A stretch of DNA of 37,524 nt from a virus. Taxonomy: Duplodnaviria; Heunggongvirae; Uroviricota; Caudoviricetes. This document shows, in pieces, positions 283-36,827 of this stretch; position 1 is the first letter of the stretch; every line of letters starts with the position of its first letter. Below the pieces are notes generated by a model. The model was not told the DNA's origin. It did not search any database and worked only from the letters and a program-made list of their open reading frames with translations. The stretch lies in the IMG/VR virus record IMGVR_UViG_2718217884_000001, positions 1-37,524 of that record; one strand, given 5' to 3'. Both the position numbers and the translations under genes were made by a program.

Positions 283-786
283 TTACTGATAGTGTTTTAT
301 GTTCAGATAATGCCCGATGACCTTGTCATGCAGCTCCACCGATTTTGAGAACGACAGTGACTTCCGTCCCAGCCTTGCCAGATGTTGTCTCAGATTCAGG
401 TTATGTCGCTCAATGCGCTGAGTGTAACGCTTGCTGATAACGTGCAGCTTTCCCTTCAGGCGTGATTCGTACAGCGGCCAGCCATCCGTCATCCATACCA
501 CGACCTCAAAGGCCGACAGCAGGCTCAGAAGACGCTCCAGTGTGGCCAGAGTGCGTTCACCGAAGACGTGCGCCACAACCGTCCTCCGTATCCTGTCATA
601 CGCGTAAAACAGCCAGCGCTGACGTGATTTAGCACCGACGTAGCCCCACTGTTCGTCCATTTCAGCGCAGACAATCACATCACTGCCCGGTTGTATGCGC
701 GAGGTTACCGACTGCGGCCTGAGTTTTTTAAGTGACGTAAAACCGTGTTGAGGCCAACGCCCATAATGCGTGCACTGGCGCGACAT
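283..786 (-). CDS. insB: IS1 InsB (transposase produced as InsAB' by frameshift)
   Basis: 167-aa translation ...[58 protein letters not shown]... matches IS1 InsB; overlaps the insA 3' end as in IS1. Confidence 0.9.
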
Positions 787-980
787 CCGACGCCATTCAT
801 GGCCATATCAATGATTTTCTGGTGCGTACCGGGCTGAGAGGCGGTGTAAGTGAACTGTAGTTGCCATGTTTTACGGCAATGAGAGCAGAGATAGCGCTGA
901 TGTCCGGCAGTGCTTTTGCCGTTACGCACCACGCCTTCAGTAGCGGAGCAGGAAGGACATCTGATGGAAATGGAAGCCAC
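705..980 (-). CDS. insA: IS1 InsA
   Basis: 91-aa translation [43 protein letters not shown]... matches IS1 InsA as I recall it. Confidence 0.92.
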
Positions 981-1035
981 GCAAGCACCTTAAAATCACC
1001 ATCATACACTAAATCAGTAAGTTGGCAGCATTACC

Positions 1036-2092
1036 GAAATCCTTGCTCATTGAGAGCTGTACTTGCGATAGAACGCAAGCCATGAGAAACGAGAACACCT
1101 CCTAACCCAGCACGCTTGAGTGCTGCATTCACTGTTTGGCTGTTCATTGGCTGGGTTGGTTTGATGCGACTGGGAAAGATAAATTCTCGACCACCACTGA
1201 GGGACTTCATCATTTCCAGAATTGAGATAGCCTCATCCGATAGTGGAACCGTATGGTCTCGGTTCATCTTCATTCGAGCTGCTGGAATTTTCCATTCTTT
1301 AGCATTGAAATCGATCTCATCCCATCGTGCCTCAGCAGCTTCGGCAGGGCGGGTAATGGTGAGAAGCTGCCACATGAACAGACACCGCGTGGACACACTG
1401 ATACTTGCCGTACGCATTGTTTGCATTAACTGTGGAAGTTGATCCGGGCGGATACTTGGCATGTTTTTCTTCTGCGGTTTCTCGAATGCTTTCCCGATAT
1501 TTACACTGGGAACTGCATCAATCAGGCCTGTGTTCTGTGCATAAATCATGACTTCATTAATACGCTGACAAAGGCGGCGAACAGTCTCTAATGCCCCCCT
1601 AGCCTGAACCGGCTGAACTGCTTTAACCAGAGTATGAGCCTTAATCTCAGTGACACTGATATCACCGATTGCTGGAAAAATATCTCTCTCAAGTGAGCGC
1701 CAGATATCGTCAGCATAGTCCTCTGTTACGCTGGCTTTCCTCACATTCCACCAACGCTCAGCAACTAACAAGAAGGTATTAGTTTTGGCCTCTTGAGAAT
1801 TTCTCACCTGTTCTTTCTGATGTTCCTGAGGATCAATGTCTTTCGCCAATAAAACTTTAGATTCGGCTCTGAGTTTACGTGCATCAGAAAGCGAGACGGC
1901 AGGGTAGGCACCGAAGCTCTGTTTGGTTCGCTGCTTGGTCAGAGGCCGATAGTAACGGAATTGCCAGAGCTTACTTCCACTGGATTTGATTAACAGAGTA
2001 AGTCCGTCACCATCATACAACTGGTAATCGGCATCTTTAGGTTTAGCGGCTTTGATTTCCGTATCGGTTAACGGCTTTGTTTTTCTTGCCAT
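1036..2092 (-). pseudogene. intA: CP4-57/P4-type tyrosine integrase (IntA-like), C-terminally truncated by IS1
   Basis: Translation from ATG at 2092 (MARKTKPLTDTEIKAAKPKDADYQLYDGDGLTLLIKSSGSKLWQFRYYRP...) is typical of P4-family integrases; GGAG Shine-Dalgarno 8 nt upstream; ORF ends ...HGLRSIASTALNEQGF at the IS1 boundary, so the catalytic Tyr region is missing. Confidence 0.85.
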
Positions 2093-2214
2093 GGGGAGTC
2101 TCCATGCGTTTAGGCCCAACGAAAACAATAGAGCTTTTCGTTGGGCCTATCAATGGGCCTAAAAGGTTCGGATTTAATTAGTTCTCTTCGGACTTCGCGG
2201 GACAAATTGAAGGC

Positions 2215-2250
2215 ACAAAAAAGCCCGCAGGGCTTGCGCCGTGCGGGCTC
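2215..2250 (-). terminator. Rho-independent terminator (ancestral ssrA terminator, now behind the partial ssrA copy)
   Basis: On minus strand: hairpin GCCCGCA-N12-TGCGGGC (2223..2248) followed by TTTTTTGTG; lies about 45 nt downstream of the partial ssrA 3' end. Confidence 0.6.
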
Positions 2251-2293
2251 TTAGGACTTCATCGGATGACTCTGGTAATCACCGATGGAGAAT

Positions 2294-2340
2294 TTTGGTG
2301 GAGCTGGCGGGAGTTGAACCCGCGTCCGAAATTCCTACAT
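2294..2340 (-). repeat. attL core: 47-bp direct repeat containing the last 45 nt of ssrA
   Basis: TTTGGTGGAGCTGGCGGGAGTTGAACCCGCGTCCGAAATTCCTACAT is identical to 36463..36509 inside the intact ssrA; sequence diverges immediately after CAT. Confidence 0.9.
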
Positions 2341-2457
2341 ACCATTTTTAGCCTAATAAAAACATACATTTACTTTTAAAATCATCACGTTATTGTTTTT
2401 TGTATTTGTCGGGTTTTATGTGATTTTAAGTCTGTGCCGCCAAAGTGCCGCCATAAA

Positions 2458-3483
2458 TTAACGGTTCCAGTTGAGATTGTGAAGCGGGTTTTTTGTCACT
2501 GCATCTTCCAGGTGGTCGGGTGCGAAGTGGGCGTAAATCATTGTCATTTTAATATCGGCGTGGCCCAGAATATCGCGCAGTACCAGTATATTTCCGCCGT
2601 TCATCATAAAATGACTGGCGAAAGTATGGCGCAGAACGTGGGTGCATTGGCCCTCTGGCAAGTCAATGCTTGCCCGCTTGACTGCACGCTCAAAGGCTTT
2701 TCTGCATGGCGTGAATAACTTCCCTCGGTTCTTTGGTAACTCGTCATACAGCGCCTGAGATATAGGAACCGTTCGGTTTTTCTTGCCCTTTGTTTTGGTG
2801 TAGGTGATTCGGTATTTAGATAACTGATGGCCCTGCAGGTTTTCGGCTTCACTCCAGCGGGCGCCGGTAGCTAAGCAGATTTTTGCAATCATGAGCAGGC
2901 TGGGGTTTTCTGAATCAGCGCAGGCATCCAGCAGGCGTTTAATTTCTTCCGGCGCCAGGAACGCCAGTTCCCCCTCTGCGATTTTAAATGTTGGAAGCCC
3001 GGCGAGTGGGTTGGGGGCTGACCAGTGGCCCAGCTTTTTCAGCGTGCCAAAAACTGATGATAGGTTGCGTTGTTCAAGGTTTACCGTGCGGGGCTTAACT
3101 GGCGACATAGGCAAGCCATCTTCATTTTTGACTTCACCTTTTAGGCGTGCTTCACGGTATTTTGTAAAGTCACCGGCAGTCAGCTCCGAGGCAATGGGAT
3201 CACCCAGGCCATTACAAATAATGTTAAGTTTTGCCATCAGGCGCTTGGGGTCAGCAAGAGTCTGTCCGTAAAGTGAATGCCACTGCTTAATTACTTCTGA
3301 CAATTGGCGCCGATCATCCTTTTCGCCTAGCCATGGCTTTTTGTTCACTTCATCCATTGTGAAGTTTTCGAATGCTATGGCCTCGCCTTTCGTCGCAAAT
3401 TGCTTGCGCACGCGCTTGCCATCGCGCCCGCTAGGGTAGCACTCACACAACCATTTCCCGTTTGGCTGTTTTCTGATGGTCAT
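2458..3483 (-). CDS. int: Phage integrase (tyrosine recombinase, P2/186 Int family)
   Basis: 341 aa; C-terminal motifs HVLRHTFAS and MIYAHF (catalytic His/Arg/Tyr region); adjacent to attL; followed by GTGCCGCC direct repeats. Confidence 0.88.
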   Translation of the reverse strand: MTIRKQPNGKWLCECYPSGRDGKRVRKQFATKGEAIAFENFTMDEVNKKPWLGEKDDRRQLSEVIKQWHSLYGQTLADPKRLMAKLNIICNGLGDPIASELTAGDFTKYREARLKGEVKNEDGLPMSPVKPRTVNLEQRNLSSVFGTLKKLGHWSAPNPLAGLPTFKIAEGELAFLAPEEIKRLLDACADSENPSLLMIAKICLATGARWSEAENLQGHQLSKYRITYTKTKGKKNRTVPISQALYDELPKNRGKLFTPCRKAFERAVKRASIDLPEGQCTHVLRHTFASHFMMNGGNILVLRDILGHADIKMTMIYAHFAPDHLEDAVTKNPLHNLNWNR

Positions 3484-3484
3484 A

Positions 3485-4117
3485 TCAAAGGCTCTTAATA
3501 ACTTTTAAGACGTGGCCTACAACCTCGATATCATCCAGGCTGCACTCAAAAGATGATTCATCTTGATGAACTACCAATCTGTTTCCGGGGATACGGGTTA
3601 ACTTCACAATACTTTTTATTCCATCAATATCGACCAACCACACCCCATTTACTGGTGGTGTTTGGCTGCGATCCACTAGGTATGAATCACCACCGGTATT
3701 TACTAAGAGTAAGTTACTGGAATTGGAAGGAAGCAAGCTGCTGTCAATGATTGCTTTACCTGTATCCACCAAAGAGCCGCTAGAAAGTGTCACTTTGTCA
3801 ATTTCGGGAGAAACAAGGTCAGAAAGGTGTTTAACTTTGCCGGAGTTCACGAAATTGATATCTTTTTGCATGTCAATGTTTGAACCCGGCTCGCCTTGCC
3901 CTGTGGTAAGCCAGAGTAAAGAAACGCCTGTCTCAAGAGCGCACTGAATTACCCATTCTGCAGGGAAACTATCTCTTAAGTATCTGTTTGCCATGGTGCT
4001 TTTAGATGCGCCAAGATGGTCGCACAATTGCTGTCTTGATTTGAAATCGTAGGCTGCCATTAGCCTATGGATGGCCTCTCTACCCCCGGTGTTCTCGCCT
4101 GTCTTTACTTGTATCAT
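3485..4117 (-). CDS. cI: CI-like immunity repressor (N-terminal HTH, C-terminal S24-like domain)
   Basis: 210 aa, divergent from apl/cII operon, position between int and the lytic operon as in 186. Confidence 0.7.
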   Translation of the reverse strand: MIQVKTGENTGGREAIHRLMAAYDFKSRQQLCDHLGASKSTMANRYLRDSFPAEWVIQCALETGVSLLWLTTGQGEPGSNIDMQKDINFVNSGKVKHLSDLVSPEIDKVTLSSGSLVDTGKAIIDSSLLPSNSSNLLLVNTGGDSYLVDRSQTPPVNGVWLVDIDGIKSIVKLTRIPGNRLVVHQDESSFECSLDDIEVVGHVLKVIKSL

Positions 4118-4236
4118 TTTTTAATCCTATTGACGTATCAAATATTGGATCGTAGTATCTTTTCGTATCAACTCTTGAATCGTATAAAACAAGATAAAAC
4201 GACGTAAACCAAACCTTAACCGAGAGATACTGCACT
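4118..4236. promoter_or_regulatory. Lysis-lysogeny switch region with divergent promoters and repeated operator-like motifs
   Basis: Between divergent cI (-) and apl-like (+); four spaced copies of a (A)TCGTAT-containing motif (TTGACGTATCA 4129.., TTGGATCGTAGTAT 4145.., TTCGTATCA 4162.., TTGAATCGTATA 4175..); candidate -35/-10 TTGACG-18-TAGTAT. Confidence 0.5.
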
Positions 4237-4485
4237 ATGAGCACTGATATTTCAATTCGTGTACCAAAAGTGATAGCGACGCCAGCCGAGTTTGCTAAGT
4301 GGGAAGGGTATTCCCGTGGTTCTGTTTATCAGATGATTCATAACGGTAAATTGGCTAACTACATTGAAAAGAAAGAAAAAAACAAAGGCCGCGTATTCAT
4401 CCTTTACCTCAAGTACAAAAAAGACCAAGCAAGCAAAAACATGGACAAGTCTGCATTCAATTACAACGTTGTAGTTGGTTGTTAA
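4237..4485 (+). CDS. Apl/Cox-like excisionase and transcriptional regulator
   Basis: 82-aa basic protein, first gene of the rightward operon opposite cI, position as 186 apl / P2 cox. Confidence 0.5.
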   Translation: MSTDISIRVPKVIATPAEFAKWEGYSRGSVYQMIHNGKLANYIEKKEKNKGRVFILYLKYKKDQASKNMDKSAFNYNVVVGC

Positions 4486-4517
4486 GTTCAATTATGTGAA
4501 CTTTTGAGGTATGAAAC

Positions 4518-5027
4518 ATGTTTGATTATAAGATTTCCAAACATCCGCATTTTGATGAAGCCTGCCGGGCTTTCTCGCTGCGTCACAACATGGCGAAGCT
4601 GGCAGAACGCGCAGGAATGAATGTCCAGACGCTGCGCAACAAGCTGAACCCGGAGCAACCGCATCAACTTACCCCGCCGGAGATCTGGCTGCTGACTGAT
4701 ATCACAGAAGACTCAACGCTGGTTGACGGTTTTCTGGCTCAAATCCATTGCCTGCCGTGCGTGCCATTGAATGAAGTGGCAAAAGAGAAGCTGCCGCATT
4801 ACGTCATGAGAGCTACTGCTGAAATCGGACGTGTTGCTGCCGGTGCCGTATCGGGTGATGTGAAAACCACCGCAGGCCGCCGCGATGTTATCAGCAGCAT
4901 TAACTCTGTTACTCGTCTGATGGCACTGGCTGCCGTTTCGATGCAGGCGCGTTTACAGGCTAACCCGGCGATGGCAAGCGCGGTGGATACCGTGACGGGC
5001 CTCGGCGCTTCGTTTGGTCTGATCTGA
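4518..5027 (+). CDS. cII: 186 CII-like lysogeny establishment activator
   Basis: 169 aa; MFDYKISKHPHFDEACRAFSLRHNMAKLAERAGMNVQTLRNKLNPEQPH... resembles phage 186 CII; GAGGT RBS. Confidence 0.75.
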   Translation: MFDYKISKHPHFDEACRAFSLRHNMAKLAERAGMNVQTLRNKLNPEQPHQLTPPEIWLLTDITEDSTLVDGFLAQIHCLPCVPLNEVAKEKLPHYVMRATAEIGRVAAGAVSGDVKTTAGRRDVISSINSVTRLMALAAVSMQARLQANPAMASAVDTVTGLGASFGLI

Positions 5028-5034
5028 GGTGGTT

Positions 5035-5235
5035 ATGCTGACTAAAGAACCCTCTTTTGCGTCACTTCTCATAAAGCAAAGCCCGGCAATGCACTACGGT
5101 CACGGCTGGATCATGGGGAAGGATGGCAAACGCTGGCACCCGTGCCGCTCTCAGGATGAACTGCTGGCTGACCTGTCCACAACCAAACAGGGGAAATCAT
5201 GGCTATTGAAGGCGCTGCAGCGACTGTCCCATTAA
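5035..5235 (+). CDS. Small early protein (Fil-like by position)
   Basis: ATG at 5035 preceded by GAGGTGG; ORF track lists 5029 (GTG); follows cII as fil does in 186. Confidence 0.4.
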   Translation: MLTKEPSFASLLIKQSPAMHYGHGWIMGKDGKRWHPCRSQDELLADLSTTKQGKSWLLKALQRLSH

Positions 5236-5540
5236 GCCCCGGTAAAAGGCTGGACGCATTGAATCATATTGCGGAATTGAGAGCTAAAGTGTTTGGCCTG
5301 AATATTGAGCCGGAGCTTGAAAGGTTTATTAAAGATATGCGCGATCCACGCGACGTAAATAATAAACAGAATGAGCGGGCACTGGCAGCCATTTTTTATA
5401 TGGCAAAAATTCCGGCAGAACGTCACGGCGTCAATATTAGTGATCTGACTACTGACGAAAAGCGGGAACTGGTGAAAGCAATGAATCATTTTCGTGCAGT
5501 GGTGAGCTTATTTCCCAAACGGCTAACCATGCCGAATTAA
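5199..5540 (+). CDS. Hypothetical early-operon protein
   Basis: 113-aa ORF in the early operon, overlaps previous stop; no family recognised. Confidence 0.5.
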   Translation: MAIEGAAATVPLSPGKRLDALNHIAELRAKVFGLNIEPELERFIKDMRDPRDVNNKQNERALAAIFYMAKIPAERHGVNISDLTTDEKRELVKAMNHFRAVVSLFPKRLTMPN

Positions 5541-5607
5541 TCCACAACAGAAATTAATGGCGTAAACCCGCCGGGCTTCTTATTGCCCAAATTCAGGAGA
5601 AACAACT

Positions 5608-5841
5608 ATGCGAAATATTGAAACCCGTACCACTAAAACCGGACCAGATGATGCTGGTCTCAACCTGTTGCTGACTGAGGCACGCAAAGAAGAACGCCGG
5701 GGACGCGCAGATGTGATGGCTGCGCGTCTGGATTCTTTAGCTGCTCGTATCGTGTCACGTCAGCTTAACCACACGGAAGCGGCTGAGCTGCTGCGTCAGG
5801 AAGCTGTGAAGATTCAGAACGAAGCGCAGGAGATCCACTGA
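5608..5841 (+). CDS. Hypothetical early-operon protein
   Basis: 77-aa ORF with AGGAG RBS; stop overlaps next start. Confidence 0.5.
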   Translation: MRNIETRTTKTGPDDAGLNLLLTEARKEERRGRADVMAARLDSLAARIVSRQLNHTEAAELLRQEAVKIQNEAQEIH

Positions 5842-6068
5842 TGGCTGATTCAATGGACCTTGTACAGCAGCGCGTTGAAGAAGAACGCCCGCGCCATATC
5901 CACACCGCCCGCAATAAAACGCCGGGCGTTTCCCGTGTTCTCTGCATTGATTGCGATGCGCCGATCCCGCCAGCTCGCCGCCGCGCCATTCCGGGCGTGC
6001 AGTGCTGCGTCACTTGTCAGGAAATCGCAGAGCTGAAAGGCAAACACTACAACGGGGGTGCTGTATGA
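5841..6068 (+). CDS. TraR/DksA-type C4 zinc-finger protein
   Basis: 75 aa with CIDC...N17...CVTC four-Cys motif; common upstream of gene A in P2-like phages. Confidence 0.65.
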   Translation: MADSMDLVQQRVEEERPRHIHTARNKTPGVSRVLCIDCDAPIPPARRRAIPGVQCCVTCQEIAELKGKHYNGGAV

Positions 6069-6925
6069 GCACTATTCTGAAATGGGCGGGAAATAAAACC
6101 TCCATCATGCCGGAACTGATTAAGCATCTTCCTGCTGGCACGCGACTGGTTGAACCTTTCGCGGGTTCATGCGCTGTAATGATGGCGACAGACTATCCTC
6201 ATTATCTTGTCGCGGATATTAACCCAGACCTGATAAATCTTTTTAAGCATATTGCATTTGACTGCGAGAAATTTATTTCAAATTCAAAAGGATTCTTTTC
6301 AGGCACAAATAGCGCTGAGTCTTATTACAACATCCGTCAGGATTTTAATCATTCGGCTGAAACCACCGATTTCTGGAAAGCTGTATTTTTCCTTTATCTT
6401 AATCGCCATGGTTATCGTGGGTTGTGCCGCTATAATTTGAGCGGTCATTTTAATGTCCCTTACGGTAATTATAAAAATCCGTATTTTCCTGAAAGTGAAA
6501 TACGCGCTTTTGCAGAAAAGGCTCAACGCGCAACGTTTATCTGTGCCAGCTATGACGAAACACTGGCGCTGCTGCAGGCTGGTGATGTTGTTTATTGTGA
6601 TCCGCCATACGATGGCACATTTAGCGGTTATCACACTGCCGGTTTTACAGAAGACGATCAGTATCATCTGGCGTCTATTCTTGAGCGCCGGTCATCAGAA
6701 GGTCATCCGGTTATCGTGTCCAACAGCGACACGTCCCTGACCCGTTCGCTTTATCGTAATTTTACCCGCCATCGCATCACTGCAAAGCGCAGCATGGGTG
6801 TGGCTGCCGGCGAGAGTAAATCTGCAGCAGAAATCATCGCCACAAAATCAGCTGGCTGGTTTGGTGTCGATTTGGCGTCCGGTCCAGATATCTCGGTGGA
6901 AACTGAGGTGCGGGCGTGGCAGTGA
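6065..6925 (+). CDS. dam: DNA adenine methyltransferase (Dam family, N6-A MTase)
   Basis: [23 protein letters not shown]...FAGSCAVMM (AdoMet motif) and DPPY catalytic motif; ATGA overlap with upstream gene. Confidence 0.85.
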
Positions 6926-9324
6926 GTAAATTCACATTACATAATGCACCAACCACCGGCGGCTCGAATGAGGCCGCCGTGGCCTTTTCATGGAATAACC
7001 CCAAAAAAGCGGTTAACCCATATCTGGACCCGGCGGAAGTTGCGCCGGGGTCTGCGCTTTCAAACCTGATTGCTCTTTACGCTGCGGATAACGAGCAGGA
7101 GCAGCTGCGCCGTGAGGCGCTGAGCGATGAGGTCTGGGAACGCTATTTCTTCAATGAATCCCGTGATCCTGTCCAGCGCGAAATGGAGCAGGACCGGCTG
7201 ATTAGTCGTGCCAAAATGGCGCGCGAGCAGCAGCGTTTTAATCCCGATCTGGTCATTCTGGCTGACGTTAACGCCATGCCGTCCCATATCAGCAAGCCTC
7301 TGCTGGAGCGGATTAAATATTTCCATAGCCTGGGCAGAGCAAAAGCCTATTCCCGCTACCTGCGCGAAACAATTAGGCCCTGTCTTGAGCGGCTGGAGCG
7401 CGTGCGTGACAGTCAGGTGTCTGCCTCTTTCCGGTTCATGGCAAGTCATGACGGGCTGGAGGGGCTGCTGGTACTGCCTGAAATGAATCAGGATCAGGTC
7501 AAGCGTCTTTCCACGCTGGTTGCGGCTCATATGAGCATGTGTCTTGATGCGGCCTGCGGTGATCTGTTTGTCAGCGACGATGTTAAACCAGAAGAAATCC
7601 GCCAGGCATGGGAAAGGGTTGCAGCAGAGGCGATGCGCCTTGAGATCATCCCGCCTGCGTTTGAGCAGTTACGCCGCAAAAAGCGTCGACGCAAGCCGGT
7701 GCCCTATGAACTGATCCCACCGTCGCTGGCGCGGATGCTGTGCGCGGACTGGTGGTATCGCAAATTGTGGCAGATGCGCTGCGAGTGGCGGGAGGAACAG
7801 CTGCGTGCTGTCTGCCTGGTCAACAAAAAAGCGTCCCCGTATGTCAGCTATGAAGCCGTGATCCACAAGCGCGAGCAGCGCCGCAAATCGCTGGAGTTCT
7901 TCCGCTCACATGAGCTGGTCAACGAAGACGGTGACACGCTGGACATGGAAGACGTGGTGAACGCCAGTAACAGCAACCCGGCACACCGCCGTAATGAAAT
8001 GATGGCCTGTGTTAAGGGACTGGAGCTGATAGCGGAAATGCGCGGAGACTGCGCAGTGTTCTATACCATCACCTGCCCGTCACGCTTCCACGCAACCCTC
8101 AACAACGGCAGACCTAATCCGAAGTGGACCAGTGCCACAGTCCGGCAGAGCAGTGACTATCTGGTTGATACGTTCGCCGCTTTCCGCAAGGCAATGCACA
8201 AGGCCGGGCTGCGCTGGTATGGCGTCCGCGTTGCGGAGCCGCACCATGACGGCACAGTGCACTGGCATCTGTTGTGCTTCATGCGCAAAAAAGACCGCCG
8301 TTTCATCACTGCGATGCTGCGCAAGTTTGCCATCCGTGAAGACCGCGAGGAGCTGGGCACCAACACCGGGCCGCGCTTCAAATCCGAGCTAATCAACCCG
8401 CGCAAGGGCACGCCGACCAGCTACATCGCCAAATACATCAGCAAGAACATCGACGGGCGTGGGCTGGCTAAAGAAATCAGCAAAGAAACCGGCAGATCGC
8501 TGCGTGACAGTGCCGAGCATGTCAGCGCCTGGGCGTCACTGCACCGTGTCCAGCAATTTCGTTTCTTTGGTATTCCAGGGCGTCAGGCATACCGCGAGCT
8601 GCGCTTGCTGGCTGGTCAGGTGGCGAGAGTGCAGGGCGAACGCAAAGCGGGTGCGCCGGTACTGGATAATCCGCGTCTGGATGCGGTACTGGCGGCGGCT
8701 GATGCGGGCTGCTTTGCCACCTACATCATGAAGCAGGGCGGCGTGCTGGTTCCCCGCAAACATCACCTTGTCCGCACGGCTTATGAGCTTAACGACGAAC
8801 CGAGCGCCTACGGCGATCACGGTATCCGTATCTATGGCATCTGGTCCCCGATTGCAGAGGGCAAGATTTGCACGCACGCGGTGAAGTGGAAAAAGGTTCG
8901 TAAGGCCGTTGATGTTCAGGAGGCGGCAGCCGACCAGGGCGCTTGCGCCCCTTGGACTCGTGGCAATAACTGTCCCCCTGTTGAAAATCTGAACAAATCA
9001 GGGGGGGATTTACCCGATATTAAAACTATGGATGAGAGGGAGCTGCAGGAATATCTCCACAACATGGGCCAGAAGGAACGGCGGGAGCTGACAGCCAGGT
9101 TAAGGCTGGTAAAACCGAAGCGGAAAAAAGCATATAAACAGACTATTTCGGATCAGCAGCGCCTGCAGCTTGAGGCAGAACTGAGTTCCAGAGGGTTCGA
9201 TGGTAGCGAGTCAGAGATTGACCTGCTTCTGCGCGGCGGCAGTATTCCGTCAGGTGCCGGGCTGCGTATTTTTTACCGCAACCACCGTCTGCAGGAAGAT
9301 GACAAATGGCGTCAGTGGTACTGA
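6916..9324 (+). CDS. A: Replication initiation endonuclease (P2 gpA family, rolling circle)
   Basis: 802 aa, GTG start overlapping dam stop; contains conserved segment around HxH and tyrosine-containing YIAKYISK characteristic of gpA. Confidence 0.88.
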
Positions 9325-9420
9325 TGCCGCAGCTTTAACAATTCTTGCTCTTATTGATCCGCATCAGAGCGATCTAATTGACAGATAAAAAACGGTTTAC
9401 ATTCGCAAATTCCTACTATA

Positions 9421-9436
9421 CTGTAATTATAAACAG
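9421..9436 (+). promoter_or_regulatory. LexA (SOS) box overlapping promoter -10
   Basis: CTGTAATTATAAACAG is a perfect CTGT-N8-ACAG; -35 TTTACA (9396..9401) and -10 TATACT (9417..9422); a second degenerate half-box at 9437..9452. Confidence 0.7.
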
Positions 9437-9485
9437 TGGATATATATACAGTTGTTGTATATCCGAGGTGGTGATAGGAGGGAAA

Positions 9486-9674
9486 ATGCAGGATTATCTT
9501 TTGGAGTCGTTGAAGCTCCAGCGCATTGATTTTTTTATCAAGCTTGTAGCGGCTAGTGAGTGTAGCGACGAAGAAAAGCGGCTGGCTATCCAGTGGGTGT
9601 CCGAACTGACCGACGAGCTGATGGCGAAAATCCGCAGCCATGAATACTGCCGGTCAATGGATGTAACCAGTTAA
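9486..9674 (+). CDS. Small SOS-controlled protein (candidate antirepressor, Tum-position)
   Basis: 62 aa from ATG 9486 with GGAGGG RBS; directly downstream of LexA box; the longer 9378 start would precede the promoter. Confidence 0.5.
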   Translation: MQDYLLESLKLQRIDFFIKLVAASECSDEEKRLAIQWVSELTDELMAKIRSHEYCRSMDVTS

Positions 9675-9685
9675 GGGGAATCTGT

Positions 9686-9919
9686 ATGCGCATTGAAATA
9701 ATGATCGATAAAGAGCAGAAGATTAGCCAGGCTACACTGGACGCCCTTGAATCCGAGCTTTACCGTAATTTGCGCCCTCTGTATCCCAAAACAGCAATTC
9801 GTATCCGTAAGGGCAGCGCCAACGGCGTTGAGCTGAGCGGGTTAAAACTGGATGAAGATAAAAAGCGAGTGATGGAAATAATGCAGCAGGTCTGGGAGGA
9901 CGACAGCTGGTTACATTAG
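9686..9919 (+). CDS. DinI-family protein
   Basis: 77 aa; MRIEIMIDKEQKISQATLDALESELYRNLRPLYP...EIMQQVWEDDSWL aligns with DinI by eye. Confidence 0.75.
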   Translation: MRIEIMIDKEQKISQATLDALESELYRNLRPLYPKTAIRIRKGSANGVELSGLKLDEDKKRVMEIMQQVWEDDSWLH

Positions 9920-10122: not shown

Positions 10123-10141
10123 GGCGTGGCGGGGATACGAG
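10123..10141. other. Candidate cos (cohesive end) site
   Basis: GGCGTGGCGGGGATACGAG; first 13 nt identical to my recollection of the 186 cohesive end GGCGTGGCGGGGAAAGCAT; position near Q 3' end. Confidence 0.35.
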
Positions 10142-10240
10142 CGCGCGCTGGTTGGTTTGGGACAGCTTTCAAGAGCTATGTCTCATTTTTGCTTGGACGG
10201 ATAGATTACTCTACTCAAAACATGTGAAATGGAGATAAAC

Positions 10241-10423
10241 ATGCCGTATCAAGTTAAAGCTTATTGTCCTTGTTGTGGGGTCGCTGCAAGTGGTGATCTG
10301 AACAAAATTGAAGAGGTATTTGGTTTTAGAATGATGGAAGGGGAACGTTTGATTCCACAATCATATTGTCGCAGATGTCGTCGATTAAGATGTTCTCCAA
10401 ATGATAAAAAGTGCGGAGCATAA
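10241..10423 (+). CDS. Cys-rich zinc-ribbon protein, unknown function
   Basis: 60 aa from ATG 10241 (GGAG 6 nt upstream); CPCCG...CRRCRRLRC; AT-rich codons; 3-nt gap to next gene. Confidence 0.55.
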   Translation: MPYQVKAYCPCCGVAASGDLNKIEEVFGFRMMEGERLIPQSYCRRCRRLRCSPNDKKCGA

Positions 10424-10426
10424 AAG

Positions 10427-10696
10427 ATGGCGGTCTATTGTGTAACGTATGACTTGAAAGCTCCAGGCAAGAACTATGATGATGTTTTTACCTATCTCAA
10501 AAAGTTTGACTACTGCAAACATTTAGAATCCTTTTGGTTAATCGATACCACGCTTTCTGCAGCGCAATTGCGTGATGGACTTAAAGCAAATGTTGATAGT
10601 AACGATGTGATCTTTGTTGCTCGTTTACAAAAATCTTGGGCCTCATTAAATTATTCTTGTTCTACATGGTTAAAGGCTCCTGGTCGAAATTGGTAA
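10427..10696 (+). CDS. 89-aa protein of unknown function, co-operonic with zinc-ribbon ORF
   Basis: GGAG RBS; N-terminal beta-strand-like VYCVTYDL; AT-rich; followed by terminator hairpin. Confidence 0.55.
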   Translation: MAVYCVTYDLKAPGKNYDDVFTYLKKFDYCKHLESFWLIDTTLSAAQLRDGLKANVDSNDVIFVARLQKSWASLNYSCSTWLKAPGRNW

Positions 10697-19581: not shown

Positions 19582-20439
19582 CTATGAAATTAGTGATATT
19601 TTTTGATTGTAGTAATCATAATCCGCATGTTCTTCAGTAAAGAATAATTCAAAAGCCGTTAGCATATTTGAATAAAAACTATCTTTTGATATTGCAGTTT
19701 TTCTCTCATTTTTAGCTAAGTAATTGGTTATGAATCTTAATGATGCTGAGAATAGAAAGTGCCCCTTTATCCAATGCGTTATGCAAGTGTTGGCAGGAAA
19801 TTGAATGTTGTTTTTTTCTGCTAACCCTACATTTCTGAAATCATCAGGAAGGGTTTGAATATAAGCATTTATCTTATCTTGACATGTTTTGTAAGAGTTT
19901 TTTGATTGCATAAATCTATCGCATGAATCACCTACTACGGAATAGCCACGCTGATTTAAATGATTGTAAATATCTAAGGCAATTAGGTCTTCAATATTGT
20001 TATAAAACTCTAATAGCCAGGAGTTTATATTTATTCCTTGGATTTCTTTGGCACTGTATCTTCCCATGTGTTTTAACACACGGGATAGGACTTTCTCATC
20101 GACTATAGTATTTTCAATTGAGTAACCTTTTGTATAGATGATGTTTGTATGATTTACTAAGTTGGATGAAAAATGATTCAGATCTGCATCGCGGGCAACA
20201 ATTGCGTTTATTTGTCCTGATGTGATTCGCTCAATATAAGGTTCTAATGCTTCACACCCTCCAACTTCTTGCACTTCAACACTTAGTCGACCATTTTTTT
20301 TGAAAACTATTTCCCAAAATCCAATATCATCCTCACCTTCAACATATACCATGATATCAGCATCATAAAACATGCTGATAACATTTTCCGCCTCGTCAGA
20401 CCAATTAAAGTTATCTGTTCGAATCTCATTATTGGACAT
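19582..20439 (-). CDS. TOPRIM/DUF4435-like protein (PARIS AriB-like candidate effector)
   Basis: ATG 20439 overlaps the last codons of upstream ATPase gene; conserved acidic motifs VYVEGEDD and IVARDAD spaced as in TOPRIM folds; AT-rich. Confidence 0.5.
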   Translation of the reverse strand: MSNNEIRTDNFNWSDEAENVISMFYDADIMVYVEGEDDIGFWEIVFKKNGRLSVEVQEVGGCEALEPYIERITSGQINAIVARDADLNHFSSNLVNHTNIIYTKGYSIENTIVDEKVLSRVLKHMGRYSAKEIQGININSWLLEFYNNIEDLIALDIYNHLNQRGYSVVGDSCDRFMQSKNSYKTCQDKINAYIQTLPDDFRNVGLAEKNNIQFPANTCITHWIKGHFLFSASLRFITNYLAKNERKTAISKDSFYSNMLTAFELFFTEEHADYDYYNQKISLIS

Positions 20440-21682
20440 TGACAAGTTTCTCCATGTTAAAAATTGCACTCCTGTATTTTGAAGCTACTTCTGGAGAATG
20501 TGTGGCAGCTATTACTTGTGCATTGGGATTGAGTTTTTTGATTGCTGGGATAATGTTTCTTTGCCATTGAATATGTAGGGAGAGTTCAGGCTCATCTGTT
20601 AGGAAAATATATTGTTTTTCTCTTTGTAATAGGGTTTCTATGAATAAAATAAGTAATTGCTTCTCACCTGAAGATAAATTTTCCTGAATTATTGGTCCGT
20701 AAGTATTCTTTATGGAAAGTATTCCGCCTTGAAAGTCAAATTCCTTATCAGTAATAAATTCTTTTAAAATACTTAAAAATTGTTCAATGGGAGCGAAAAC
20801 TAAAGATGTTTTTTCTTTAGATTTTAAAGACATTCTAATTATTTTTTGTGTCTTTCTTAGCGCTTCAATTGAGCGGATGTCAAAACCATCTTTTTTATTT
20901 TGTTTTAATTCTGCAATGGTGTGATCAATAGTGTCAACATGGAAATTTATTTTCCGACGGACATTCATATCAATAGCGTTTAGTTGTGTGTACGCACTTA
21001 AAAGGTTTTGTTTTTCTTCCTCCTTGTTAAATTGAATGTTGTACGCCTTATCATCAATATCATCTTTACTATATAGAATAGATGCTAAAACTTCTTTTTG
21101 AAGTTCTAATGCAATATCTCTCGCTCGTTGAGATAATTCAAGTTGATATTTTGTTAATTCCTGCATTAATTCTGATAGTTTATAATCGACAGGGTTGATA
21201 AAGCGAGAGCCGTATTTGTCTCTAACCTCAAAGTCGTCACTATTCCTTAGTCTATAGACGGATAAAGATGAGAGTGAAACCAGTTTTGCTAATTCTGCTC
21301 TTAACTCCTCAGTCTCTTCTTGTGCTCTGCGTCTATAACTGAGGGAGATTCTTCTGTCATCGGCGTTGAATAGTCGGATGGTATGTTTTTTTGATGAAAG
21401 TTGATACTCTATTTTAGAGAACGGTGATGTATCACTCTCGATTTTCTTAATTTTTATTGTCTTAGTTTTCTTTTTGTCCTTTAGTTTTATTTCGGCACTA
21501 TTGAAATCATTGTTGTTAATGCCATCAAGGTCAATTGATAAAATTGAATGCAAAATATTCATAAAAGTTGTTTTGCCGGTTCCATTCCTTCCAATGATGA
21601 TGTTTACATCATCATTAAAAGAGCAAAGAGCATTTAATCTTTGCCAAAAACCATTGATAGCGATGCTTTGTATTTTATACAT
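20429..21682 (-). CDS. ABC-type ATPase (AAA_15/OLD-N-like; PARIS AriA-like candidate sensor)
   Basis: Walker A GRNGTGKTT, ABC signature LSSGEKQ, Walker B IFLTDEPELSLH, H-loop ATHSP; AAGGAG RBS 7 nt before ATG 21682; AT-rich. Confidence 0.6.
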   Translation of the reverse strand: MYKIQSIAINGFWQRLNALCSFNDDVNIIIGRNGTGKTTFMNILHSILSIDLDGINNNDFNSAEIKLKDKKKTKTIKIKKIESDTSPFSKIEYQLSSKKHTIRLFNADDRRISLSYRRRAQEETEELRAELAKLVSLSSLSVYRLRNSDDFEVRDKYGSRFINPVDYKLSELMQELTKYQLELSQRARDIALELQKEVLASILYSKDDIDDKAYNIQFNKEEEKQNLLSAYTQLNAIDMNVRRKINFHVDTIDHTIAELKQNKKDGFDIRSIEALRKTQKIIRMSLKSKEKTSLVFAPIEQFLSILKEFITDKEFDFQGGILSIKNTYGPIIQENLSSGEKQLLILFIETLLQREKQYIFLTDEPELSLHIQWQRNIIPAIKKLNPNAQVIAATHSPEVASKYRSAIFNMEKLVNVQ

Positions 21683-36462: not shown

Positions 36463-36509
36463 TTTGGTGGAGCTGGCGGGAGTTGAACCCGCGTCCGAAA
36501 TTCCTACAT
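36463..36509 (-). repeat. attR core: 47-bp direct repeat (within intact ssrA 3' end)
   Basis: Identical to 2294..2340. Confidence 0.9.
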
Positions 36510-36827
36510 CCTCGGTACTACATGCTTAGTCAGTCTTTACATTCGCTTGCCAGCTGCGGACGGACACGCCACTAACAAACTAGCCTGATTAAGTTTTAAC
36601 GCTTCAACCCCAGGCAGGGCTTCCACGCGATCTCTTTTGGGTTTGACCTCTCTTGATCCCCGTCCTAAGAGCGGAGGCTAGGGAGAGAGGGCTCTAAGCA
36701 GGTTATTAAGCTGCTAAAGCGTAGTTTTCGTCGTTTGCGACTATTTTTTGCGGCTTTTTACGAGGCCAACCGCCCCTCGGCATGCACCTTGGGTTTCGCA
36801 AATCCCGTCGAATCCAGAATCAGCCCC
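36465..36827 (-). ncRNA. ssrA: tmRNA (SsrA), intact
   Basis: Reverse complement begins GGGGCTGATTCTGGATTCGACGGG and ends GGTTCAACTCCCGCCAGCTCCACCA; tag region GCAAACGACGAAAACTACGCTTTAGCAGCTTAA (ANDENYALAA) present. Confidence 0.95.

Follow-up and report, generated by a model that had tools for sequence, protein, structure and literature searches.

A phage-encoded orphan Dam-family methyltransferase, predicted to be GATC-specific, in the early operon of a Fels-2/186-type prophage

Dam is a bacterial enzyme that methylates the adenine of GATC. Orphan GATC methyltransferases are also encoded by phage, including T4 and T2 (Dam), P1, VT-2/933W and HP1, a P2-like phage of Haemophilus, and the function of Dam enzymes in phage is not well understood as yet (PMC7556043). 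P2 itself does not encode any putative methylase (PMC3091744). A Dam ORF was reported for the 34-kb Ec67 element (Hsu, Inouye and Inouye, 1990, PNAS 87:9454), and this element was recognized as a 186-related prophage (Dodd and Egan, 1996), both as cited in PMC7826664. In Fels-2, STM2730 is annotated as a “DNA adenine methylase-like protein”; this gene is also named in a paper on the sigma-54 regulon. A phage Dcm is the subject of a preprint on retron-Ec86, in which Dam is named only as a trigger identified earlier, and a whole-word search of PMC12409349 gave no match for Dam.

The stretch of DNA analyzed here (37,524 nucleotides, “the window”) carries, integrated at the 3′ end of ssrA, a prophage of ~34 kb that belongs to the P2 family and is of the 186/Fels-2 type. 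The att repeat, 40 nt in length, was found at 2294 and 36463, and the tmRNA gene is encoded on the minus strand (36465..36827). With the 24.7 kb early and structural region (2300-27000) as the query, the closest sequenced phage were Yersinia phage vB_YpM_MLG42, SopEPhi, SEN8 and Fels-2, which share 89-91% identity over ~77% of the query. The left flank of the window is unlike that of the best E. coli match, whose prophage adjoins ypjA.

The early region has the order integrase, CI, pR-like promoter, Apl/Cox-like excisionase, CII, Fil, DUF5347, DUF2732, TraR, Dam and A, and a small ORF and a DinI/Tum-like gene are found 3′ of gene A. Dam is therefore encoded downstream of the CI/Apl/CII switch, in the early operon where the first-pass annotation had placed it. 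The cI repressor gene is on the minus strand (3485..4117; PF07022 and PF16452). A consensus scan detected a pR-like early promoter on the plus strand at 4130..4158 (TTGACG and TAGTAT, separated by 17 nt), which corresponds to the position of the 186 pR, and the apl/cox-like gene (4237..4485) is located 3′ of it. This promoter is presumed to be the source of the dam transcript. The only other plus-strand promoter-like site upstream of dam is a 9-of-12 match at 5277, and the scan identified none between 5307 and 6915. Between the DUF5347 and DUF2732 genes, the consensus scan alone indicated a weak terminator-like hairpin (5558..5573, plus strand), at the place where 186 has tR1 and P2 has the terminator that follows gene B.

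The dam gene occupies 6065..6925 on the plus strand, with an ATG at 6065-6067 and a TGA stop codon at 6923-6925. The ORF is intact and encodes a 286 amino acid protein that we assign to the Dam family (D12 class) of N6-adenine DNA methyltransferases and predict to be GATC-specific. The product matched PF02086 (MethyltransfD12) with an E-value of 5.1e-71 and 239.8 bits (cut-off 22), and the match covered all of the model (positions 1-253 of 253). In the NCBIfam comparison, it scored 298.4 bits against TIGR00571 (“Dam family”), which is 2.6x the cut-off of 114.85. Structures in the PDB that it matched include E. coli Dam (EcoDam, 2G1P; E = 2.5e-73), DpnM (E = 5e-31) and T4 Dam (E = 7e-19), and in PHROGs it matched phrog_56, DNA methyltransferase (1.4e-115). 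The motifs are in the alpha-class order, i.e., motif I, the target-recognition domain and then motif IV, colinear with residues 7-270 of EcoDam. The score against the equivalog model of housekeeping Dam (NF008152) was 287.9 bits and thus under the cut-off of 441, which indicates that the protein belongs to a clade of phage paralogues and is not a copy of the host dam.

The first-pass annotation had proposed a DPPY-motif enzyme of the Dam family at exactly these coordinates, and had suggested a profile search to confirm the class. The Pfam, NCBIfam and E. coli Dam structure matches bear out the family assignment, the Dam subfamily model is exceeded by a wide margin, and DPPY can be read at residues 179-182. 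The same annotation linked the gene to the upstream zinc-finger gene and to the GTG start codon of gene A, and both junctions were found as described below.

Dam is the third of four genes in an overlapping chain (DUF2732, TraR, Dam, A). The chain starts with the DUF2732 gene (5608..5841, plus strand; PF10809, E = 9e-31), the stop codon of which overlaps the ATG of the zinc-finger gene in the sequence TGATG at 5839-5843. The latter gene (5841..6068, plus strand) encodes a C4 zinc-finger protein of the TraR/DksA type (PF01258, E = 3.9e-10), and its assignment to the TraR family is based on a TIGR02419 score of 65.2 bits (cut-off 59.7). Its TGA at 6066-6068 overlaps the ATG of dam to form an ATGA junction, ahead of which is a G-rich, Shine-Dalgarno-like GGGGGT (6054-6059). 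At the other end, dam overlaps by 10 nt with gene A (6916..9324, plus strand), which encodes an 802 amino acid replication initiator, a rolling-circle nickase (PF05840 Phage_GPA, E = 2.5e-131). The GTG start of gene A at 6916 is preceded by a Shine-Dalgarno sequence, GAGGTG, inside dam (6905-6910). Three lines of evidence support this start codon: it was chosen in the PGAP annotation of an identical E. coli prophage, the annotation of Fels-2 has the same layout, and V-A-V-S-K at the N-terminus can be aligned with M-A-V-K-A of P2 gpA. No restriction endonuclease gene adjoins dam, which is flanked by the TraR/DksA and gpA genes, and we thus consider it to be an orphan methylase.

Both the catalytic and the recognition elements of EcoDam could be located in the predicted protein. 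Catalytic motif IV, D-P-P-Y (residues 179-182, encoded at 6599..6610 on the plus strand), corresponds to D181-Y184 of EcoDam, and is kept in 119-120 of the 120 homologs used as cluster representatives. AdoMet motif I, F-A-G-S-C-A-V (residues 32-38; 6158..6178, plus strand), was identified by alignment to F35-V41 of EcoDam and is part of an N-terminal EPFAGSCAV (residues 30-38). F32, G34 and the acidic residue of motif II, D51 (D54 in EcoDam), are invariant in the clade. In place of the second glycine of FxGxG, the protein has a cysteine (C36), as do 119 of the 120 homologs.

In EcoDam, R124 reads the guanine of the fourth base pair, K9 and Y138 are involved at the first base pair, and L122, P134, N120 (which forms a base hydrogen bond) and the intercalating Y119 also contribute to the reading of GATC (PMC4417163). 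Six of these seven residues are identical in the protein studied here (K6 = K9, Y117 = Y119, L120 = L122, R122 = R124, P132 = P134 and Y136 = Y138), and the mapped recognition residues are kept in at least 118 of the 120 cluster representatives. Five of them (Y117, L120, R122, P132 and Y136) are the predicted GATC contacts of a recognition beta-hairpin that spans residues 116-137 (6410..6475, plus strand). The seventh residue, N120 of EcoDam, is replaced by arginine (R118). Like the cysteine in motif I, this substitution is fixed across the clade. GATC specificity is strongly predicted from these sequence comparisons. Outside of the variable cassette considered below, dN/dS is ~0.1-0.17 (0.046/0.48 against Fels-2 and 0.043/0.249 against SEN8), which indicates that dam has been maintained as a functional enzyme.

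One part of the protein shows a very different pattern. Residues 58-110, encoded by an AT-rich segment at 6236..6394 (plus strand), form a hypervariable cassette and presumably correspond to the helical part of the EcoDam DNA-binding domain, ahead of the recognition hairpin. The cassette falls into 24 deeply diverged types at 80% identity among the 120 representatives, whereas the remainder of the protein is 87-98% conserved. Some homologs are 94% identical to the window protein outside the cassette and only 38% identical inside it, and the partial protein P0093 shows the reverse, with 96% identity inside and 81% outside. The GC content of the cassette is 35%, compared with 49% for the rest of dam, and in the comparisons to Fels-2 and SEN8 its dS is saturated, compared with values of 0.25-0.5 outside. 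A YY..R..FN core, which includes the equivalent of EcoDam R95, is kept within the cassette. This pattern points to recombination as the process that has shuffled old alleles of a surface-exposed subdomain. It is rather unlikely, in our estimate, that the cassette goes beyond relaxed constraint and represents either the footprint of an arms race with a host defense sensor or inhibitor that recognizes the Dam surface, or a tuner of the flanking preference or processivity of GATC methylation.

The window contains 114 GATC sites, ~108 of which are within the prophage. Dinucleotide-preserving shuffles gave an expectation of 127 +/- 12, so the count that the first-pass annotation had recommended reveals neither avoidance nor enrichment. 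This frequency is consistent with a phage that grows in Dam+ hosts and whose own DNA is methylated. We also searched for a regulatory target. An ori-like nick sequence in gene A (8946-8973) aligns to the ori of P2 and of 186, and there is no GATC within ~130 bp of it. Near the cos-like site (10123-10141) there is no pac-like cluster, and we found only two GATC sites, at a distance of ~85-95 bp. The spacer of the pR-like promoter contains a GATC (at 4148), and Fels-2 and SEN8 have one there as well. We give this site little weight as a Dam target, given that it is not specific to phage with dam: the P2 Pe promoter also has a GATC although P2 has no dam, and the 186 pR has none.

The dam gene is an already known and already annotated feature of Fels-2/186-type prophages. 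The 1.8 kb region around it is 100% identical to prophages of eight complete E. coli genomes, and the identical protein is in RefSeq as “DNA adenine methylase” (WP_001744221.1, PGAP). This exact protein is recorded on 246 contigs. Genes of the same clade are present in 1262 of 5426 complete E. coli genomes (~23%), nearly always beside a TraR/DksA gene, and 4800 homologs were detected at E ≤ 1e-20, with hosts that include Klebsiella, Salmonella, Enterobacter, Citrobacter, Edwardsiella, Serratia and others. A dam gene is in the same slot in SopEPhi and in many phage of Klebsiella, Salmonella and Escherichia, and members of the gene family have been described in numerous further Peduoviridae. Given carriage by ~23% of genomes, the gene may be relevant for methylation-based assays, for mismatch repair during induction and for methylation-sensing defense.

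In combination, we conclude that the gene very probably encodes the orphan Dam of a prophage of the Fels-2/SopEPhi type (Felsduovirus, with a 186-like switch), and that the enzyme methylates GATC sites of replicating phage DNA. On infection or induction, Dam would be made together with gpA. It would methylate the GATC adenines of phage DNA produced by rolling-circle replication more rapidly than the limiting host enzyme, for which it would compensate, and packaged genomes would then be fully, not partly, methylated. Full methylation may protect the DNA from nucleases that are blocked by Gm6ATC (those of the MboI/DpnII type and those with overlapping sites), and may keep hemimethylated phage DNA from MutH and SeqA. 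The 10-nt overlap and the Shine-Dalgarno sequence within dam would also couple the translation of gene A to that of dam. According to the 186 record, A appears to be translated only if orf84 is translated through to its end, and by analogy with this precedent the conserved 10-nt overlap suggests that dam and A may be coupled in the same way. Every known host genus is already Dam+, and thus what a phage would gain from a second GATC methylase can only be inferred.

The first-pass annotation had offered protection from restriction and altered host gene regulation during lysogeny as possible functions. The former is compatible with our results and the latter is not favored by the operon context. 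A regulator of this kind would act in lysogenic conversion, with Dam from the resident prophage altering host GATC methylation and, through it, gene expression, phase variation or mismatch repair. Dam methylation does affect Salmonella prophages, including the excision of SopEPhi (PMC7380047), and the spread of the gene through 1262 of 5426 E. coli genomes could reflect a benefit to the host. However, dam lies in the middle of a CI-repressed early lytic operon, overlaps both of its neighbors and is not directly preceded by a predicted promoter; no plus-strand promoter-like site was detected at 5307-6915. A role in lysogeny is unlikely for these reasons. Moreover, the true cargo slots of the prophage are elsewhere, in the cos-to-portal interval and among the tail genes; in the window, the former holds a two-gene cassette and no retron. 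We thus regard lysogenic conversion as an unlikely explanation. There is even less reason to view the protein as the modification half of a restriction-modification system, a reading to which we assign a negligible probability. Enzymes of the D12 class do occur in Type II systems, and the second-ranked PADLOC model was MTase_II (1.2e-85), but the best model was that of orphan methyltransferases (3e-105), no nuclease gene adjoins dam, and in every relative examined the flanking genes encode TraR/DksA and gpA.

Other alternatives concern the enzyme itself. The replacement of N120 and the hypervariable helical subdomain could have produced a specificity other than plain GATC, or a changed preference for flanking sequence. 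For example, the EcoDam N120 base contact is arginine in all 120 homologs, R137 of EcoDam is asparagine or histidine, and alleles differ strongly in the helical part of the DNA-binding domain. Yet the main GATC determinants (R124, L122, P134, Y119, K9 and Y138) are conserved, T4 Dam and DpnM are matched in addition to EcoDam, and the TIGR00571 score is well over twice its cut-off, so we consider altered specificity to be very unlikely. It is highly improbable that the protein is a catalytically dead, Dam-like binder that has been kept as a coupling leader for A or as a GATC-binding regulator. The departure of FAGSC from FxGxG could be read in this way, as could the coupling to A documented for the unrelated 186 orf84. 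Also, EcoDam binds non-cognate DNA and may repress transcription without methylation (PMC4417163). In opposition to this, DPPY, D51, F32 and G34 do not vary, purifying selection on the catalytic domain is strong, and a mere leader would not stay full-length and conserved across Enterobacterales.

Comparison with known systems places the gene in a site that is variable among related phage. The T4/T2, P1, VT-2/933W and HP1 enzymes are far more distant in sequence, and differ in genomic context and in regulation. As the first-pass annotation had suggested, the gene is not part of canonical P2: the same slot is occupied by Orf83 (DUF5405), an unrelated protein, and PMC3091744 is in agreement. In 186, the slot contains an exonuclease gene, a DUF5405 gene and the PAPS-reductase gene orf84, which are also unrelated. 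Neither phage has a methyltransferase there, but in both, as in the window, the gene at the end of the slot and the start of A overlap. We found no similarity of the C-terminal tail of Dam to P2 Orf83 or 186 orf84, and accordingly rejected the possibility that the tail is left over from either of them. For annotation, the interval from the zinc-finger gene to A can be treated as a variable site for genes of DNA metabolism or DNA modification: P2 has DUF5405 there, 186 has exonuclease and PAPS reductase, and the prophage of the window has Dam.

EcoDam (2G1P) has the fold class, motif order, DPPY and GATC-reading hairpin residues in common with the window protein, and the two are colinear over 258 residues with 46.5% identity. 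The window protein differs by N120R, R137N and G39C, by a 5-residue deletion after DPPY and by another C-terminus. Moreover, it is phage-borne in a lytic operon, whereas EcoDam is encoded in the host dam operon. Much closer is the Dam of the retron-Ec67 prophage: a protein named “retron EC67 DNA adenine methylase” at NCBI is 78% identical to the window protein over the full length. Both have FAGSC as motif I and the R118 signature, and both prophages are 186-like and share the order of the early genes. The two proteins differ in the variable cassette and in the C-terminal tail, and the window is without a retron.

The closest known systems include the Dam proteins of Fels-2, SopEPhi, SEN8 and vB_YpM_MLG42 (Felsduovirus, Peduoviridae), with 81-82.5% protein identity. 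In SEN8, an extra exonuclease gene is located between the zinc-finger gene and dam, and some E. coli prophages have dam together with a gene for a PAPS-reductase domain protein in the same slot. Relative to Fels-2, the difference is concentrated in the cassette, where 6 of 20 residues (61-80) and 9 of 20 residues (81-100) are identical, compared with 16-20 of 20 in the other 20-residue bins. STM2730 of Fels-2 and its equivalents lie, like dam of the window, between the zinc-finger gene and A. They have the same C-terminal tail, and they overlap their neighbors by the same 4 nt and 10 nt.

Residues 58-110 of the predicted Dam methyltransferase (window 6236..6394) form an AT-rich, hypervariable cassette, whereas the remainder of the enzyme is highly conserved. 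Among the 120 representatives of the dam homologue clusters, this segment falls into 24 types at 80% identity. In comparisons with the dam-carrying relatives Fels-2 and SEN8, synonymous sites are saturated in residues 58-110, with values of 0.25-0.5 elsewhere in the gene. The saturation and the many cassette types together point to old dam alleles that were shuffled by recombination.

The pR-like promoter (window 4130..4158) has a GATC in its spacer at 4148, inside one of two repeated operator-like units (CGTATCAA…TTG(G/A)ATCGTA). Fels-2, SEN8 and P2 Pe likewise have a spacer GATC, which 186 pR lacks. Downstream of gene A, in a region at about 9380..9440, TTGACA (9379..9384) and a LexA-box-like sequence, CTGTAATTATAAACAG, precede a small ORF (9486..9674) and a DinI/Tum-like gene (9686..9919). 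The arrangement is similar to that of the p95 operon of 186, which is under SOS control. GATC occurs twice, at 9356 and 9371, just 5′ of this region.

A cos-like sequence, GGCGTGGCGGGGATACGAG, was detected at 10123..10141 and is also found in Fels-2. It matches P2 cosR at 13 of 19 bases, and the DNA immediately preceding it is similar to the 186 record at its right end. An AT-rich (36-39% GC) two-gene cassette (10229..10696, plus strand) separates the cos-like site from the portal gene, encoding a Cys-rich ORF of 64 aa (phrog_19700) and an 89-aa ORF of phrog_1090 (function unknown). The latter has a sub-threshold, Cas2-like Pfam match (E = 0.002), and a sequence-based search for PDB relatives of the cassette found none. 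In 186-like prophages, the retrons Ec67 and Ec86 are located in this cos-to-portal slot. Further along, a PARIS-like defence pair (19582..21682, minus strand) is inserted amid the tail and baseplate genes. It comprises an AAA_15/AAA_21 ATPase (20429..21682, minus; PADLOC AriA, 1.8e-36) and a DUF4435 protein (19582..20439, minus; PADLOC AriB, 8.6e-23).

The integration site of the prophage is the 3′ end of ssrA. This tmRNA gene lies at 36465..36827 on the minus strand and has the tag ANDENYALAA. Both ends of the prophage are marked by a direct repeat of 40 nt (2294..2333 and from 36463). Beyond attL we identified a second tyrosine integrase with an Arm-DNA-binding domain (1031..2128, minus) and an IS1 transposase fragment (283..786, minus), which suggests that this ssrA site also holds an older island (283..2128). 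The 100% identical copy in E. coli L3Cip3 has different flanks and adjoins ypjA.

Gene A and the zinc-finger gene are separated by a slot whose content varies and consists of DNA-metabolism genes. In the comparison loci L005, L006 and L004 it spans 2066..2650, 2911..3921 and 3391..5248, respectively, in their own coordinates. The prophage studied here has Dam alone in this position, whereas P2 has DUF5405, 186 has an exonuclease, DUF5405 and a PAPS reductase, SEN8 has an exonuclease and Dam, and some E. coli prophages have Dam with a PAPS-reductase-domain protein.
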